Assembly: GCA_965218095.1 (NCBI GenBank)
Contig: OZ244587.1
Location: forward strand, 1,536,001-1,600,000
DNA length: 64,000 bases
Source: Candidatus Poribacteria bacterium
GTDB taxonomy: Bacteria; Poribacteria; WGA-4E; PCPOR2b
Direction: 5' to 3'
A model generated the notes under the pieces. That model saw only the letters and a program-made list of their open reading frames with translations, made no database searches and was not told the origin of the DNA. This document shows positions 31,630-38,813 of this stretch, piece by piece (the stretch's first letter is position 1; each line of letters begins with the position of its first letter). The position numbers and the translations under genes are program-made.

Positions 31630-34137
31630 CTACTTGAGGATCACCATCCGTCGTAAGTCGGTATAATCCCCTGCTTGGAGTTGATAGAAATAGACTCCGC
31701 TTGCGACCGATTCCCCCCTATCGTTGCGTCCGTCCCAATAGGCTGCTTTCGTCCGGGTGGTATAGAATCCTGCGGGTTGATTCCCCAATTCTAATTGCCA
31801 CACCGGCGTCCCTTTTGTGTCGTAAACCGTGAGTGTGACATCGGCATCGTGAGCGAGTTGATAAGGAATCCACGTCTCCGGATTGAACGGATTTGGGTAG
31901 TTAGGCAACAGTGCCGTCTCTTTCGGAGCCAACGCTGCGAGAAGGTGTTCAAGGAAGATAATGCCCCTTTGCGAGCGTAGATCCGTCAGATCTAGGCCCT
32001 GTGCTTGGGTGAGCCAGCCCTCTACATCGGCAGGAGTGATCATCGCCAGTGCCTGTGGATGCGCCGAAGGTGCGGCTGCCGCGTTGCCTATTGCGCCGGC
32101 AACCTGAACCAAGTCTGCAATATCCACAACGCCATCCCGGTTGACATCCGCCTCATTTTGTCCCGTCTGTCCCAAACGCAATGCAACCAGGGCTAAATCC
32201 AAGATGTTCACCGCCCCATTCCTGTTGACATCCTCAGCAAGTGTCGGCGGTTTTTCCCCGGTGTCCGGTGGCGGTGCAATATCCCACAGAAGCACCGTGC
32301 CGTCCACACTCCCACTTGCGAGGGTTCTGCCATCGGAGCTGAAAGCAACGCTATTGACCCTAGACGTATGTCCGGTAAGGGTTTTGATGTGCTTGCCCGT
32401 GCCAACATCCCACAAGCCAATCGTATTATCCCACCCCCCACCTGCGAGGGTCTTGCCATCGCGACTGAAAGCAACGCTTTCAATAACGCTTTCGACGCCA
32501 TACTGACTCCCGTGGATGGTTCTCACTTCCTCACCGGTGGTAACATCCCACAGGCGAATGGTATTGTCCCACCCCCCACTTGCGAGGGTCTTGCCATCGC
32601 GACTGAAAGTAACGCTGAGGACATGACCTCTATGGCCGAAGAGGGGTTTCAGGACATCCCCGGTGGCAACATCCCACAGGACAACGGCAGAGTCTCGCCC
32701 CCCGCTTGCGAGGATCTTTCCATTGGGGCTGAAAGCGACATTCTCGACGCCAGCACCGTGTCCGTAGAGGGTTCCCAGGCGTGCCCCGGTGGCGACATCC
32801 CACAAGCGGATGGTATCGTCCTCACTTCCACTCGCCAACCTGCTGCCATCGGGACTGAAAGCAATGGTTATCAGATAAGCGCTATGCGCGACGAGGGTTT
32901 TCAGGTGCGCCCCGGTGTCAGCATTCCACAGGCGAACGGTATTGTCCTGACTTCCACTAGCGATTGTGCCCCCATCCGGGCTGAAAACAACGATGTCCAC
33001 ATCATCCGTGTGCCCGACGAGGACGTGCTGGAGTTGTCCTGTTTCGGTATTCCACACGCGGATGGTTTGGTCCCAGCTCCTACCGATGAGCGGGCGGTCA
33101 TCCGGACTGAAAGCAACGCTCAGGACACCACTCTCATGCCCAGTAATGGTTTCGATGGGCTCACCCGTATCAACATCCCACAGGCGGACAGTCGCATCCC
33201 CCCCCCCACTTGCGAGTGTGCGGCTATCCCGACTAAACGCAACTCTGTAGACATCAGCCGTATGTCCGGTAAGGGTTTTGACGGGCTCGCCCGTGACAGC
33301 ATCCCACAAGCGGATGGTATCGTCCTCACTCGCACTCGCCAGCGTGCGGCCATCCGGAGAAAAAGCGAGTTTGTAGACAATGGAGGTATGCCCGGTAAGG
33401 GTTTCGATGGGCTCGCCGGTGTCAACATCCCACAGACGGATGGCCGCGTCGTAATCTCCACTGGCGAGCGTGCCTCCCCGACTGAAAGCAACCGTCCGGA
33501 CAAGAGACGTATGCCCGGTAAGAGTTTTGATGGGCTCGCCGGTGTCAACATCCCACAGACGGACGGTTTGGTCCCAACTCCCACTGGCGAGCGTACCCCC
33601 ATCCGAGCTGAAAGCAACGCTAGTGACCCAATCCGCATGTCCGGTAAGAGTTTTGATGGGCTCGCCCGTGGTAGCATCCCACAGGCGAACTGTCGCGTCG
33701 TAACTCCCGCTGGCAAGCATGCCCCCATCCGAGCTGAAAGCAACGCTCCGGACACCACTCTCATGCCCGGTAAGGGTTTTGATAGTCTCGCCCGTTGTAA
33801 CATCCCACAAGCGAACAGTATCGTCCCAACTCCCACTGGCAAGTGTACCCCCATCCGGGGAATACGCCATAGCAGAAATCGTTTCCGTATGCCCAGTGAG
33901 CAAGTCAACCTCTTGAAGGGTCGCCGCATCATAGAGCCAAATACCGATGGAACTGGCGACCGCGAGCCGAGTGCCGTCCGGAGGCGAATACTGAAGCCCA
34001 GATATCCACCCTTTACCAAATCGCGCAGTGGCACCTTCGGGTAACTGCCACTGAGGGTTATCTTGGGCAAAGCTGTTTGATAGAAATAGAGCAGAGACTA
34101 ACAATAGGGTAAAGGTAAAAAACATCCTCTTTTTCAT
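31630..34137 (-). CDS. Tandem paralog: WD40-repeat, dockerin-like and FlgD/T9SS-type C-terminal domain protein
   Basis: Same architecture; long near-identical DNA blocks shared with 29088-31589. Confidence 0.93.
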   Translation of the reverse strand: MKKRMFFTFTLLLVSALFLSNSFAQDNPQWQLPEGATARFGKGWISGLQYSPPDGTRLAVASSIGIWLYDAATLQEVDLLTGHTETISAMAYSPDGGTLASGSWDDTVRLWDVTTGETIKTLTGHESGVRSVAFSSDGGMLASGSYDATVRLWDATTGEPIKTLTGHADWVTSVAFSSDGGTLASGSWDQTVRLWDVDTGEPIKTLTGHTSLVRTVAFSRGGTLASGDYDAAIRLWDVDTGEPIETLTGHTSIVYKLAFSPDGRTLASASEDDTIRLWDAVTGEPVKTLTGHTADVYRVAFSRDSRTLASGGGDATVRLWDVDTGEPIETITGHESGVLSVAFSPDDRPLIGRSWDQTIRVWNTETGQLQHVLVGHTDDVDIVVFSPDGGTIASGSQDNTVRLWNADTGAHLKTLVAHSAYLITIAFSPDGSRLASGSEDDTIRLWDVATGARLGTLYGHGAGVENVAFSPNGKILASGGRDSAVVLWDVATGDVLKPLFGHRGHVLSVTFSRDGKTLASGGWDNTIRLWDVTTGEEVRTIHGSQYGVESVIESVAFSRDGKTLAGGGWDNTIGLWDVGTGKHIKTLTGHTSRVNSVAFSSDGRTLASGSVDGTVLLWDIAPPPDTGEKPPTLAEDVNRNGAVNILDLALVALRLGQTGQNEADVNRDGVVDIADLVQVAGAIGNAAAAPSAHPQALAMITPADVEGWLTQAQGLDLTDLRSQRGIIFLEHLLAALAPKETALLPNYPNPFNPETWIPYQLAHDADVTLTVYDTKGTPVWQLELGNQPAGFYTTRTKAAYWDGRNDRGESVASGVYFYQLQAGDYTDLRRMVILK

Positions 34138-34242: not shown

Positions 34243-34488
34243 TTATCGATTGAGTGTTTTCATCGCGGCAATCATGTCGTCGTCTGACGGGTTGCTTTTC
34301 ACCATCTCAACAAACTCGTCAGCGTCTAGCTTGTGTTCCTCCAGGAACTTTTTGTCCTGCGGTCACGGGTAGATGTATTCACCGATAGTACCGTTCAACT
34401 TGGCGCGCGCCTTATCGGTAACCCGCGCCAACCACCAGTACCCTCCAATGAGCATATCCCGATGCCGTGGTTTCCAATCGAGTCCCAT
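34243..34488 (-). CDS. DUF5069-like protein with in-frame TGA at codon 42 (candidate selenoprotein, 81 aa)
   Basis: AAGGAGGTG RBS; MGLDWKPRHRDMLIGGYWWLARVTDKARAKLNGTIGEYIYP(TGA 34363-34365)PQDKKFLEEHKLDADEFVEMVKSNPSDDDMIAAMKTLNR*. Confidence 0.8.
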
Positions 34489-34513
34489 TTAATTCACCTC
34501 CTTTATCAGGTAT

Positions 34514-34614
34514 TAAGTTCTCTCAGAAAATGGAAAAGCCTGAAAACACTGAATTTGTCGAACTGTCAAATGATTCCTTCCCCCCACTTACGATCCGACT
34601 TGCTGAGAAAGCTC
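34514..34614. mobile_element. MITE remnant related to the element between secD and secF
   Basis: Reverse complement of 34514-34549 (gtgttttcaggcttttccattttctgagagaactta) matches 49669-49704 (gtgatttcaggctttccaattttctgacagaactta). Confidence 0.55.
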
Positions 34615-34659
34615 AAGACGTTTGTAATGAGACAATTCATCGCTATCTGAGATGCGTAA

Positions 34660-35543
34660 GGTATGCACTACGGCAAACCAAGAATTTCTTCGGGGCGTTG
34701 AACTTGAGGCAGCAGCATATCGTGAAAGGCGGATGCAGATTTTACTGCATGTCCGCAAGCCGCTGTTGGATTGCCGTCTGTCGTGCGTTCCACAGGTTGA
34801 TCATCGGCTAATCGAACATCACTACAACGTGCATGCCCAAGATTAACGGATTTAAACCTTTCCCGAAAGTGGCAAGGGCTAACACGCTCGCATCTTCGGA
34901 CGTAAACCTATAGTTGCGCAACCGTCTCGCCCACCTCTTAAAGTACCGCATCGGCTGTGCGACTTGTACGCGACTGCGAAAGAGGCGAATGAGTGCAGCA
35001 TAGCGTAGAAAGTGTTCCAAACGTCGCAATAGCTTCTCCGTTTGCGGCACAACAAACAGATCAATGCCTTGAGCATTTGCGCGGCTTAATAAGTCGAATG
35101 CCAGCAACTTCGCATCAGTTTGTCAGTTTTAACAATCCTTGCAAGATGTATTACGCTGTGACTTTATCGAGCAGGCACTGCCTCCGGTGAAACCTCCACT
35201 TCCTCAAGGTCTTCGAGGTCAGTTTCTGTCCATTTCTCCCACAGTTTAGTCTGCTCAGATTCGGGAAGATCAAGATATTCCCCTAATGTCAAACCATCTA
35301 AGAACGGCTCGTCGAGACTGAGCGGTTGGCCCCAATGGCTTGCAAAACCTCCTCTTTCAGAGATTTGACGGTCCCACGAGCGTTTTCTATCGTTCTCTCC
35401 GTTTGGATTACGTCCTTCTGTAACTCCGGCGCCAGCTTGAGCAGTTGCTGTCGATCTTCGGAACTCATCTGTTTAATCAAAGCCGCAATCTGTTTGAGAC
35501 TGACGGGTAAGGCGAATACTGTCTCTGGCTCCCGCCTTATCAT
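34660..35543 (-). pseudogene. Decayed two-gene module: acidic antitoxin-like ORF and PIN-like ORF
   Basis: First ORF continues by frameshift into EPFLDGLTLGEYLDLPE...EVSPEAVPAR*; second has CLLDK...EDASVLALA...VVMFD with several stops. Confidence 0.5.
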
Positions 35544-35597
35544 TACAAGGCATTAGGGTAAAACGCCTCCTAAGTACCTAATACCTAACACCTACTT

Positions 35598-38500
35598 TTA
35601 TTGTACACTCGCCTCAAGCTGCTTCAAGGTTTTCTCCAAGAGATCTAGATAGCGTCCATATTCCGTCCAATTTCCCGCCCGTTGCGCCGCTTGGGCTCCG
35701 TCATAATGTTGTCGTGCCTGCTTCACAAGTTGGGAAATTGGCATCTGGTTCAAGAGGAGTGTTTCTCCCTGTTCACCCATCATCGCTGAAATAGTGGGAG
35801 TTTCCTCAGTCTCAAGACCATCTTGTGCTTCTGCTACTGCCAAACGTCTACCGAACATATTAATCAACGCTTCATCAAGACTTGCGCCCCATGCAACGTT
35901 TTCTTTATAACCGACGACAACACGACGCAGTTCAGGAATTGCAGATTCTTCGTTCTCTGCCTGGATGTAGATTGGCTCAACATACAGGATGGAATCATTC
36001 ATCGGGATGATCAGCAAGTTGCCACGCAGTACGCGCGATCCTTGCGTATTCCACAAACTAATCTGCTGGGAAATTTCAGGTTCCTGGGTGATGAAATTTT
36101 CGACCTGCATCGGACCGGGGGCAAGTTTCCCTTTTGCGAAGCCATAAACTAACAGTTGACCATATTGCGGCAAATCACATCTTGCCGCGATCCAAGCCCT
36201 GAGATTTGGCTTATTTTTCGGCGTGAAAGGCAACATCAGTACAAATTCCGCACGTTCCTCTCCCGGAATTTTGACGACTACATAGTAAGGGGCGACCTCT
36301 TGCACATTCGAGATGGTCCCCGGCAAGCTCTGCTGGCGCGGGGCGAATGGGCTGGTGGGTGGCGTTTGAGGACGCAGGCGTTCCGTGTTGTCGTAAAGTT
36401 CCTCGCCGATCTGCCACTGATCTTCGCTTGCGTAGAAAGTAATTGGATCCTTCATGTGATAATCTTGGTACGCCCGTGCCTGTATGAGAAACATTGTGGT
36501 GGGGTATCGGATATGCTTTTTGAGTTCTTCGGGCATCTCGTCGAACGGTTTGAATAGGGCTGGGAAGATACGGCGGTAACACTCGACAATTGGATCCTTT
36601 TCTCGTTCCATCAGGTAGAAATTCACAGTACCATCGTAGGGGTCAATTGTCACCTTGACGGCGTTTCGGATATAATTGCCCCACGGACTTTCACCCCCCA
36701 TGATACGGCCGGCAACACGTCTACCACCACGTTCAGCAATTCTCGCGCGGGTAACGTCTTGCATCGGTGCGGAATAAGGGTAACGTGCAGTCGTTGTGTA
36801 AGCATCAACCATCCAGATGAGCCTACCATTGTAAATAACAAGGTAAGGATCGTCATCGTAGCGCAGGAATGGGGCAATTTTTTCAACACGCTCTTTAATG
36901 TGCCGATGGTAGAGAACACGGCTTGTTGATTTGATTTCGCCCGGCAGGATGAACTTGAGCTCGTTTCTAAATTTCAGCATATACACGAATTTGCGTAAGA
37001 AAGAGGAAAGGCGGACGCCTCCTTTGCCTTGATACGAATATTTGGCGAAATCTTGTCCGAATGTTTCAGGGTAATCAAACTCAAGGCTCACCGGGCGGTC
37101 TGGATGGACAATGACATAATGGTTCGTGCGTTCCCCGTAGTAAATCCGAGGACCTGGATTTTCGTTAAACCGATACGACCATTCGGGCTCGTAGTTAATT
37201 GGATCAATGTCCCGTATGTACATTTTCGGCTTTCCGTCGAGAGCCTCGTTGACCGGACTCATCACCGCCCCATAGCCATGGGTGAAAACGTAAGTTCGCT
37301 TAAACCAATCGTTACGTACCTCACGCGGCAGATCATCGATATTCAGTTCACGCCCAGAAAGCATCACCTGCCGTAGTTCATTGTTTTCCATTGGATAGCG
37401 ATCGATGTCAACGCCAGAAAAATCGTATTGTGAGCGCAACTCCTGGAGTTGGCGGAAAGTACGCCGTAGCGGTCGCTCATCCCATAGCCGAATGCTATTA
37501 ATCACCGGTGCATTTTCCTGCCCCATGATACTCTCATAAGACAACTCTCCTGTCAAGGGATACTGTGTCTCCGTCACGGTGTTGTCCTCTAGATCATAAG
37601 CATGCAGTGTCGCCCTGACGTTATAGTTGATGTATTTCGCCTCAAGTTCCTGCTTGCTGGGCTCAACTTTCAGATTTTGAACAAGACGAGGATAGGCCTG
37701 CCCAATAAAAGCAACAAGCAAAAGAACGACGACGCCCCCAACCGCGAAAGAGATGCGGCGTAAAAAGATGCTGACGAAGAAAATCAGCGCGCATATAACC
37801 GAAAGCCACATTAAAATCATTAATACCGGTAACCGGGCCTGAATTGCTGCATAGCCACCCCCACCACGAACAATATCGTTCATCGTGTAGAGGAGGTCAT
37901 ACATCACAAACCGATAATTCCAGGCGCGAAACAGCAGTATTAACCCGATCAGCACAAATAGGTGTGTCTTAACACGCTGCGGCGGCTCAAAGCGATTGTT
38001 CTCACTGATCAGTAGCCCGTGAAAAAAGTAGATGACAGCCGTAAACAGGGTGATTAGCATGAACAGACCAAATAGATAACCGCAGATTAAGCGTTCCAGG
38101 GGCATTCGAAAGACATAGTAGCTGACGTCCTTATGGAAGATTGGGTCGCGCGCAGCCGCAACCAAAATCGCTTTTTGTGACGCATCGAACTTAAGGCCCT
38201 GGCTCAATTGAATTTTCGCTTGCCCATTCGTGCCAGGGACAATCGATTGAATTTCTGCCGCGTGGCGGTTATCTCCTTCTTCGATTGTGACATCATCACC
38301 TCTTTGAAGTCCTTTGGCATTGAGCTCCAACTGAGAGATGACAATTTCGGTAGTGTCCTGATTTGCTGGTGCAGCGAGCGACGTTGCTGATTGGAAGGAA
38401 AGTCCGCTGGCCTTGGAATAGCGGAGAAAGCGTTCCCAGTAGTTTGTCGCAGTATAACCGCCTAAGAGGCTGCCCCCGACAGCCAAGAGTGTGAGTACAA

Positions 38501-38813
38501 CATAGACCGCCTTCCGGAGGTCAAAATCAAGCACTCCCTCAAGTGGGATTGATTCCATAAGGGTTGGACTCAGTCGAGAGGGGGTGAAACGATGGAGGAG
38601 ATAGAGGTTGGTAAGGGTCACGACAAGCAAGAAACCAGCGACAATAATCCCCAAGCCAATTTGCGTCAATAGAATCTTCTTATAAATCGCGACATAACCG
38701 ACCATATCAAACCAGAGGAGGTCGGGATAGATTTTTACGAGGATCGTTCCCACTCCAATGATTACTGCTAAAAGCACAACAAAAATAATAAGTCGAGTCA
38801 AAGATAGTTGCAT
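35598..38813 (-). CDS. UPF0182-family membrane protein
   Basis: LWFDMVGY, DPIFHKDVSYYVF, IRLWD, DIDRY, YVFTHGYG, PRIYYGE, NYIRNAVK, LYVEPIYIQ, PELRRV. Confidence 0.93.
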   Translation of the reverse strand: MQLSLTRLIIFVVLLAVIIGVGTILVKIYPDLLWFDMVGYVAIYKKILLTQIGLGIIVAGFLLVVTLTNLYLLHRFTPSRLSPTLMESIPLEGVLDFDLRKAVYVVLTLLAVGGSLLGGYTATNYWERFLRYSKASGLSFQSATSLAAPANQDTTEIVISQLELNAKGLQRGDDVTIEEGDNRHAAEIQSIVPGTNGQAKIQLSQGLKFDASQKAILVAAARDPIFHKDVSYYVFRMPLERLICGYLFGLFMLITLFTAVIYFFHGLLISENNRFEPPQRVKTHLFVLIGLILLFRAWNYRFVMYDLLYTMNDIVRGGGGYAAIQARLPVLMILMWLSVICALIFFVSIFLRRISFAVGGVVVLLLVAFIGQAYPRLVQNLKVEPSKQELEAKYINYNVRATLHAYDLEDNTVTETQYPLTGELSYESIMGQENAPVINSIRLWDERPLRRTFRQLQELRSQYDFSGVDIDRYPMENNELRQVMLSGRELNIDDLPREVRNDWFKRTYVFTHGYGAVMSPVNEALDGKPKMYIRDIDPINYEPEWSYRFNENPGPRIYYGERTNHYVIVHPDRPVSLEFDYPETFGQDFAKYSYQGKGGVRLSSFLRKFVYMLKFRNELKFILPGEIKSTSRVLYHRHIKERVEKIAPFLRYDDDPYLVIYNGRLIWMVDAYTTTARYPYSAPMQDVTRARIAERGGRRVAGRIMGGESPWGNYIRNAVKVTIDPYDGTVNFYLMEREKDPIVECYRRIFPALFKPFDEMPEELKKHIRYPTTMFLIQARAYQDYHMKDPITFYASEDQWQIGEELYDNTERLRPQTPPTSPFAPRQQSLPGTISNVQEVAPYYVVVKIPGEERAEFVLMLPFTPKNKPNLRAWIAARCDLPQYGQLLVYGFAKGKLAPGPMQVENFITQEPEISQQISLWNTQGSRVLRGNLLIIPMNDSILYVEPIYIQAENEESAIPELRRVVVGYKENVAWGASLDEALINMFGRRLAVAEAQDGLETEETPTISAMMGEQGETLLLNQMPISQLVKQARQHYDGAQAAQRAGNWTEYGRYLDLLEKTLKQLEASVQ

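Follow-up and report, generated by a model that had tools for sequence, protein, structure and literature searches.

A predicted selenoprotein of the DUF5069 family in Candidatus Poribacteria, with a conserved in-frame UGA and a SECIS-type hairpin

In bacterial genes with an intragenic selenocysteine insertion sequence (SECIS), for which fdhF of Escherichia coli is the prototype, an in-frame UGA stands directly before a stem-loop of the coding region. We analysed a gene that shares this arrangement, a short DUF5069 gene at positions 34243-34488, on the minus strand, of a 64,000-nucleotide (nt) stretch of a Candidatus Poribacteria genome, hereafter the window. An earlier note on this DNA (the original prediction) had picked out the locus as the gene of a selenoprotein of 81 amino acids (aa). 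The bacterial SECIS (bSECIS) model of Zhang and Gladyshev, as given in the legend of Fig. 2 of PMC13188914, describes a stem of 4-16 base pairs (bp), a loop of 3-9 nt that begins 16-37 nt from the UGA and has G in its first two positions, then G or U, and a minimum free energy of at most -7.5 kcal/mol. The hairpin of the locus has a small loop of this type, UGGA, and its spacing of 19 nt lies within the 16-37 nt of the model. It differs in lying at the small, weak end of the model, with 5 bp and an energy of -4.2 kcal/mol alone or -7.5 kcal/mol in a constrained fold. As in known bacterial selenoprotein systems, the genome contains selA, selB, selD and a gene for the selenocysteine (Sec) tRNA (tRNA-Sec), and homologues with cysteine (Cys) exist.

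The mechanism proposed here is the ordinary bacterial one, with SelB and a SECIS, and the new part is the DUF5069 family. The inventory of May 2026 counts 119 selenoprotein families and subfamilies in its main table (Table 1, PMC13188914), and PF16798/DUF5069 is absent from that table. Several predicted single-Sec families treated there (DUF523, DUF1858, DUF3179, GOS_B/GOS_C) are supported by the same kind of evidence, namely a conserved UGA, a SECIS-like hairpin and Cys homologues; they are likewise small proteins with Sec at a conserved Cys position and no assigned function. DUF5069 differs from them in being a separate family, PF16798, unlisted in the table, and in the absence of a UxxC or CxxU motif. 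In NCBIfam release 20.0, NF-numbered selenoprotein models included, 0 families matched the product at E ≤ 1, and neither DUF5069 nor PF16798 was named in the literature searched. The available text of the deep-Sep and BSepDB papers does not mention DUF5069, and the passages on Poribacteria and selenocysteine that we found, among them those of PMC5649159, do not name the selenoprotein gene. As the original prediction had supposed, DUF5069 thus stands outside the selenoprotein families described in these sources. The 'hypothetical protein GOS_A' of the 2008 GOS study, for which the accessible text gives no domain or motif, may be the same family. New selenoprotein families are found regularly, and DUF5069 would add one to the inventory.

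The features of the locus are the following.

34243..34488, minus strand: complete putative selenoprotein gene, short-form DUF5069, 81 aa (reading of the open reading frame (ORF); 61 of 61 orthologues in the same frame)
34495..34503, minus strand: ribosome-binding site AAGGAGGTG, 6 nt 5' of the ATG (read directly)
34363..34365, minus strand: in-frame UGA, predicted Sec codon 42 (TGA in 61 of 61 aligned orthologues; Cys in homologues)
34335..34348, minus strand: hairpin GUUCC-UGGA-GGAAC, 5-bp stem and a loop of 4 nt in which the second and third letters are G (constraint and covariation)
34243..34245, minus strand: true stop TAA (read directly)

Conservation of the in-frame UGA and of the protein on both sides of it

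Read from 34488 to 34243, the frame consists of an ATG (34488-34486) with 40 sense codons, the TGA, 39 further sense codons and the TAA, with no second stop or frameshift at the locus. The ribosome-binding site, the 41 codons before the TGA, the 39 after it and the intact frame are all as first described, and a GGAGG-type site precedes the ATG in nearly all of the 61 orthologues presented below. The membership in a DUF5069-like family, as originally proposed, is borne out by the Pfam profile (PF16798), which matches the read-through product with 61 bits (E 1.7e-16; gathering cut-off 27); the whole-genome search with the same profile gave 56.6 bits at this locus. Residues 7-78 of the 81 align to positions 4-75 of a profile that has 133, so that the full-length domain is not reached. 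This short form is found in all 61 orthologues (80-98 aa), and the Cys homologues are also short (86-102 aa). Both parts of the DUF5069 signature, R..DK.RA and G.Y.Y(P)C(P).D, are present: the product contains ARVTDKARA before the UGA and, with U standing for the UGA, GEYIYP-U-PQD around codon 42, within the motif Y-I-Y-P-U-P-x-D.

In order to follow the TGA through related genomes, we performed a six-frame search of 61 genomes, consisting of this one and 60 relatives from 4 families and 15 genera. The best match per genome was 65-99% identical and contained exactly one in-frame TGA in each of the 61 genomes. This TGA occupies a single alignment column in all of them, inside the motif Y-[IV]-Y-P-U-[PA]. 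The orthologous frames end at TAA, TAG or a second TGA after 80-98 codons, and an additional stop within the frame or a frameshift was observed in 0 of 61. In a survey of the phylum, the gene was found in 168 of 176 Candidatus Poribacteria genomes at E ≤ 1e-15; among the matches listed, all 150 contain one TGA, and there are 19 further matches. A TGA restricted to this genome had been set beforehand as a reason to abandon the prediction; the codon is instead shared by all 61 relatives and the gene by nearly the whole phylum. Metatranscriptome contigs from four runs of one study, 90-100% alike, cover the gene but were not taken as support, because contigs from an RNA library are proof of neither transcription nor read-through; among the matches listed, none of the metatranscriptome pieces had at least 31 letters on each side of the UGA.

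Selection was estimated as the ratio of nonsynonymous to synonymous changes (dN/dS) by the method of Nei and Gojobori over all pairs of the 61 orthologues. The ratio was 0.071 for codons 1-41, before the TGA, and 0.118 for codons 43-80, after it; this second value falls to 0.082 when codons 47-53, which include the hairpin, are left out. The proportion of synonymous differences (pS) was near saturation (0.68-0.71). Low ratios together with nearly saturated synonymous sites indicate that both halves are protein-coding and under purifying selection, contrary to the lack of downstream selection named beforehand as evidence against a selenoprotein. At invariant residues outside the hairpin the choice of codon is free, as at position 20 (L20), which is encoded by six codons among the orthologues.

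These data bear directly on the possibility, raised with the original prediction, that a TGC or TGT codon mutated to TGA and left a pseudogene with decaying downstream codons. TGA is one base away from the Cys codons, and public collections do hold products cut at the TGA (P0015, P0016 and further N-terminal fragments). However, all 61 relatives, some with as little as 65% identity, share this TGA, in a gene carried by 168 of 176 genomes of the phylum, the downstream half shows a dN/dS of 0.118 with saturated synonymous sites, and no second stop or frameshift has accumulated in any of the 61. A pseudogene is thus extremely improbable.

An equally slight probability attaches to the idea that the locus gives two products, a 41-residue peptide ending at the UGA and a separately translated downstream peptide, although standard annotation does report the 41-residue product. 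The first in-frame ATG past the UGA is codon 62, yet codons 43-61 are conserved as protein while their synonymous sites vary (P43 in 60 of 61; D45 as GAC in 38 and GAT in 23; F59 as TTT in 36 and TTC in 25). In addition, the two halves form one domain, since the matches to DUF5069 and to the structure PDB 3OMD span the junction, and the Cys homologues are single continuous proteins.

We then examined which residue related proteins carry at the column of codon 42, referred to below as the Sec column. Among 15 protein relatives from a word-indexed protein collection, 10 are full-length with tryptophan at the site (UGA read by code 4), 2 stop at ...YIYP (P0015 and P0016), and 3 are natural Cys forms that are 53-66% identical (P0009, P0013 and P0014). 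An exhaustive profile search returned 497 proteins at E ≤ 0.001. The best 150 of its rows (149 new proteins) and the three Cys forms made up a set of 152 proteins with 172 stretches. At the Sec column, 116 stretches have C and 27 have S; another 14, from products truncated at the TGA, show a gap, and 15 have some other residue. The original claim that the UGA sits on a conserved Cys thus holds for the 116 stretches with Cys but not family-wide, as shown by the 27 with serine (Ser); these Ser forms are mostly tandem multi-domain proteins, and forms with 2-3 domains are common. A metagenome scan seeded with a second clade of truncated products, with the motif F-R-P-R-x-R, yielded 58 loci, of which 48 have TGA at the site, 8 have Cys and 2 lack the motif. 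One of the Cys forms (L186:2501-2770, TGC) lies by similarity inside an otherwise TGA clade and has kept TTCCTGGAAAAA, a decayed copy of the hairpin core; such a copy is expected after a switch from Sec to Cys, and to judge from its sequence this locus looks like a recent replacement followed by loss of the SECIS.

Public gene calls for the family either stop at the UGA, in many cases after a spurious extension at the N terminus, or translate it as Trp under code 4, the latter on short contigs; U is displayed in none of the public proteins examined. The proteins examined for this were P0002-P0016, P0017, P0021-P0024, P0040, P0044, P0064, P0081, P0113, P0128 and P0148. As the public versions of the product either keep only some 41 core residues or wrongly carry Trp, the protein escapes annotation pipelines and metaproteomic databases.

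A SECIS-type hairpin and the selenocysteine machinery

The stem-loop that had been noted 14 nt after the UGA is present at 34348-34335 on the minus strand. Its loop starts 19 nt after the UGA, and it is encoded by codons K47-H52 (AAG TTC CTG GAG GAA CAC); a terminator scan also found its reverse complement, on the plus strand. Codons 48-51 are frozen at the nucleotide level (TTC in 61, CTG in 60, GAG in 61 and GAA in 60 of the 61 orthologues), and pS over codons 47-53 is 0.227, compared with 0.712 in the remainder of the downstream half. The 12-nt core TTCCTGGAGGAA occurs unchanged in 59 of the 61 genome orthologues, and RNAalifold applied to the orthologues returns exactly the 5-bp stem. On the evidence of these alignments, retention of the TGA in one column together with the hairpin core among the 61 relatives is more than chance.

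Geometry was measured in 58 orthologues, excluding two with a variant core and one with an N. The loop is UGGA. Stems of 5 bp are the most frequent (36 orthologues), followed by those of 7 bp (20) and 6 bp (2). The loop begins 19 nt from the UGA in 54 orthologues; in the other 4, members of a clade with a one-codon insertion, the distance is 22 nt. Loop, stem, position of the G and spacing all fall within the bSECIS ranges as stated in the Fig. 2 legend of PMC13188914. A fold constrained to contain the hairpin reaches -7.5 kcal/mol or less in 57 of the 58. An alternative hairpin, CAGGA...UCCUG, was rejected, as it is not kept in relatives with CAAGA, GCGGA or GCTGA.

Covariation was assessed on 52 distinct sequences, 20 from Poribacteria and 32 from metagenomes. 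Hairpin cells are paired in 87.1%, against 78.3 ± 1.1 in shuffles, and the covariation score is 0.236 against 0.098 ± 0.014, a value reached by 0 of 500 shuffles. Controls in which the register was slid pair at 20-62%, compared with 87%. Compensatory changes are seen at three stem pairs: pair 21-34 is GC in 39, CG in 9, AU in 1 and GU in 1, pair 20-35 is AU in 16, GU in 13 and UA in 10, and pair 19-36 is AU in 16, CG in 4 and GC in 3. Of the metagenome loci of the Sec form, 46 have enough sequence, and 43 of these contain the exact core at a constant distance of 15 nt downstream of the TGA. None of the 8 loci of the Cys form has the exact core, and the peptide F-L-E-E is relaxed there to F-L-E-K, F-L-E-R, F-L-Q-D and similar. 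Since the hairpin lies inside the coding sequence, it fixes the codons TTC CTG GAG GAA and hence the peptide F-L-E-E; the locus is a clear natural illustration of how a recoding signal constrains the coding sequence that contains it.

Absence of the Sec machinery had also been named as incompatible with the prediction. All four components were found in this genome above their curated cut-offs:

selA: 605.7 bits (cut-off 267.9)
selB: 353.7 bits (cut-off 242.25)
selD: 371.1 bits (cut-off 125)
tRNA-Sec: 76.6 bits (cut-off 47), 94 nt after selB

The selD of this genome (contig C1:5447425-5448348, minus strand) also encodes a selenoprotein: a single in-frame TGA lies within T-C-G-U-A-A-K. Its hairpin has an energy of -21.3 kcal/mol over 60 nt, and its loop, AGUU, begins 17 nt after the UGA; it is alike to that of the DUF5069 gene in loop type and spacing. 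Across the phylum selA was found in 163 of 176 genomes. In one family (f5) both selA and the DUF5069 selenoprotein gene were detected in 0 of 3 genomes, and the families f5, f10 and f11 together include five genomes in which DUF5069 is not matched at all.

Could the UGA be read without selenium, either by a near-cognate tRNA inserting Trp or Cys or because TGA is reassigned as in codes 4 and 25? The codon is followed by C, a leaky context, in 60 of 61 orthologues, Trp stands at the site in 10 of 15 gene-caller products, and a conserved downstream hairpin could in principle stimulate plain read-through. However, TGA terminates 7 of the 29 long non-overlapping ORFs of the window, which identifies it as an ordinary stop that has not been reassigned here. 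Insertion of Trp is at odds with the Sec column, where W occurs in 1 of 172 stretches, itself a UGA read as W, and C in 116. The UGA-C context is not required either, since in the other clades 25 of 46 loci have G next to the TGA, 19 have C and 2 have A. Moreover, the hairpin has the loop type, size and spacing of a bacterial SECIS and resembles that of the genome's own selD, the genome has the complete Sec machinery, and the family that lacks selA also lacks the gene. Selenium-free read-through is therefore very improbable, if somewhat less so than a pseudogene.

Several observations weigh against decoding of the UGA as Sec. The hairpin of the window is weak: the stem of 5 bp has only -4.2 kcal/mol by itself, and the fold of the UGA with the following 45 nt (48 nt in all), when forced to hold the hairpin, reaches -7.5 kcal/mol, exactly the limit of the model. 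The unconstrained fold of this genome's sequence favours the alternative pairing rejected above, which is itself non-conserved. The 61 close relatives alone covary only slightly, with 7 cells changed on both sides, and strong covariation appears only once the metagenome clades are added. Three metagenome loci of the Sec form (L182, L191 and L193) lack the exact core. Nine fragmented genomes, 61-95% complete, have the gene without a selA match (G006, G078, G084, G087, G089, G112, G125, G068 and G075). Finally, the support for insertion of Sec and for a full-length protein is all comparative.

The comparisons establish that the UGA is conserved, that the gene is under selection on either side of it, that the hairpin is constrained and covaries at the RNA level, that the genome has the Sec machinery and that Sec forms are paired with Cys forms. 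Together with the Cys homologues and the hairpin geometry, these results support the predicted selenoprotein of 81 aa. We consider it very probable that the locus is a real selenoprotein gene and not a pseudogene, its UGA being decoded as Sec in a functional gene; the TGA common to all relatives, the dN/dS of its downstream half and the lack of further lesions contradict the mutational origin proposed as an alternative. If the locus follows the known pathway of bacteria, as the comparisons suggest, SelB loaded with Sec-tRNA(Sec) would bind the hairpin GUUCC-UGGA-GGAAC, whose loop lies 19 nt past the UGA, and would bring selenocysteine to codon 42. Translation would then continue for 39 codons to the TAA and yield the 81-residue DUF5069 selenoprotein.

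Structure of the DUF5069 family and possible role of the Sec residue

A profile of the orthologues finds one solved structure, PDB 3OMD (E 7e-16), an uncharacterised protein of 145 aa from Leptospirillum rubarum in which a Cys is aligned to the Sec column. The AlphaFold model of the Cys homologue P0009 has a mean per-residue confidence (pLDDT) of 94.6, with helices at 20-31, 43-51, 56-65 and 69-84, and places Cys42 directly before the second of these. It superposes on 3OMD with a TM score of 0.80, a root-mean-square deviation of 1.1 over 73 columns and a Z score of 12.4. Sequence match, alignment of Cys to Sec and superposition of the fold are thus common to the two proteins. In contrast to 3OMD and to the 7 paralogous domains of its own genome, the protein encoded at this locus lacks the C-terminal half; it also has Sec in place of Cys. 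In 68 homologues of the Cys form, K26 and D45 are invariant and R22, D25, R28 and A29 are conserved in at least 90%; the invariance of Cys in this set is by construction, as its members were chosen for having it. Another Cys is present in 0 of 61 Poribacteria orthologues and in 15 of 48 metagenome Sec forms.

A residue at which evolution swaps Cys for Sec is usually a reactive centre, and the Sec column is likely the active site of the DUF5069 family. Its location at the signature Cys (YPCPxD), the position of Cys before a helix in the model and the lack of any other Cys point to a single-chalcogen centre that works with an outside thiol. The original prediction had suggested a redox or metal-binding role for the family. 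We propose tentatively that Sec42 is a lone chalcogen that carries out redox or chalcogen-transfer chemistry with an external thiol and not within an internal CxxU-type pair, an assignment to which we give a little less than even confidence. The only redox-flavoured neighbour fits this chemistry. In all 7 loci of one family (f4), a gene that fuses a glutaredoxin to a pyridine-nucleotide-disulphide reductase (Grx-reductase) stops about 30 nt before the selenoprotein gene, in the same orientation, and it is also directly upstream in 10 metagenome loci of the f4 clade. The fusion protein (loci L086-L092 and L195-L223) has 448 aa and joins a glutaredoxin to a thioredoxin-reductase-like flavoprotein; a dodecin-like gene precedes it.

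Other observations speak against this role. Most of the paralogous DUF5069 domains of the genome have Ser at the Sec column, with Cys in only one of 7, so the family does not always need a chalcogen there. A redox motif of the type UxxC or CxxU is absent, the local motif being YP-U-P-x-D. Similarity to a characterised fold was not found in the structural searches: Foldseek with the P0009 model against the PDB returned only 3OMD (next E 3.6), and VIA-align over 48,161 chains gave 3OMD at a Z of 12.4 and everything else at Z ≤ 3.8, mostly TetR-type helical proteins, matches that are within noise for helical models. A search of the ESM Atlas with P0009 retrieved only DUF5069 clusters, with scores of 0.83-0.85 and no functional lead. 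Neighbouring genes vary between clades, so that the Grx-reductase neighbour is limited to one family and may be mere synteny.

The main alternative accepts a genuine selenoprotein but supposes that Sec42 binds or carries a metal, a metalloid, selenium or sulphur without thiol redox turnover, for example as a ligand of Hg, Cu or As or as a carrier of selenide or persulfide. A single Sec with a partner Cys in 0 of 61 orthologues would suit such a role, as would the basic and acidic residues conserved around the site in the 68 Cys-selected homologues, and many single-Sec families in Table 1 of the 2026 inventory are metal-binding or metalloid-handling (PMC13188914). We also scanned ten multi-domain relatives, of which four had no second domain; the partners in the other six were Cupin_2 (2), DUF2249 (1), the C-terminal domain of a CO-dehydrogenase flavoprotein (1), a methyltransferase (1) and a dienelactone-hydrolase-like stretch (1), and the first three of these could accord with carriage. 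On the other hand, no metal-binding motif was recognised, no metal-resistance genes were seen among the neighbours, and the Grx-reductase fusion is a better fit to thiol chemistry. Carriage by Sec42 appears unlikely, although it is the foremost alternative to a single-chalcogen redox centre.

The genome also encodes tandem DUF5069 domains in single frames, three in 437 aa and two in 295 aa (C1:2200777-2202027 and C1:4807952-4808770 of G000, both on the plus strand; loci L025-L028 and L030), which have Ser in the motif Y-G-x-D-S-G-x-D.

In most bins of sponge symbionts SelA and SelB co-occur, while they are missing in most related reference genomes, according to the passages concerned in Slaby et al. 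2017 (PMC5649159). Taken with this pattern, the near-universal presence of the gene in Poribacteria makes it a candidate reason for keeping the Sec machinery in sponges. A broader reading joins these points: the DUF5069 fold would be chalcogen-active, a property so far overlooked, and the Poribacteria that live in sponges, along with further marine lineages, would have its short Sec form as a core selenoprotein. This combination is rather doubtful. If it were true, the protein would represent a new type of single-Sec redox or selenium/sulphur-transfer protein. A thiol system, for instance the Grx-reductase fusion, would recycle it, and the protein would help to explain why sponge symbionts retain a costly Sec machinery. 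The peptide F-L-E-E would then be dictated by an RNA signal across distant clades and decay once Cys replaces Sec. More generally, the Sec residue offers the first clue to what DUF5069 proteins do, in a family whose one solved member, 3OMD, is uncharacterised.

Gene neighbourhood

A gene upstream of the selenoprotein gene in the window is the following.

35598-38813, minus strand: UPF0182 membrane-protein gene

Of the 81 loci in the nearest Poribacteria set, 80 have a UPF0182 gene upstream in the same orientation; among the 45 metagenome loci whose upstream sequence is long enough, only 1 does. We therefore rejected it as a functional partner and attribute its position to lineage synteny. The downstream genes, pheA-like in 60 and queG-like in 45 of the 81 loci, are housekeeping genes.

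In the window about 1.1 kb (34489-35597) separates the UPF0182 gene from the selenoprotein gene, while this gap is below 400 nt in most of the 81 related loci and 1 nt in six. It contains small minus-strand ORFs at 34808-35107, 35164-35292 and 35298-35543, with no Pfam family above threshold. The stretch may be an insertion, perhaps with a small toxin-antitoxin-like pair. Directly downstream of the selenoprotein gene, at 31630-34137 on the minus strand, lies the gene of a protein of 835 aa whose start resembles a signal peptide and which contains 13 or more WD40 repeats. These repeats yield long spurious antisense ORFs, such as that at 32368-34044 on the plus strand (558 aa), which may be the source of the earlier impression that the window is rich in pseudogenes.

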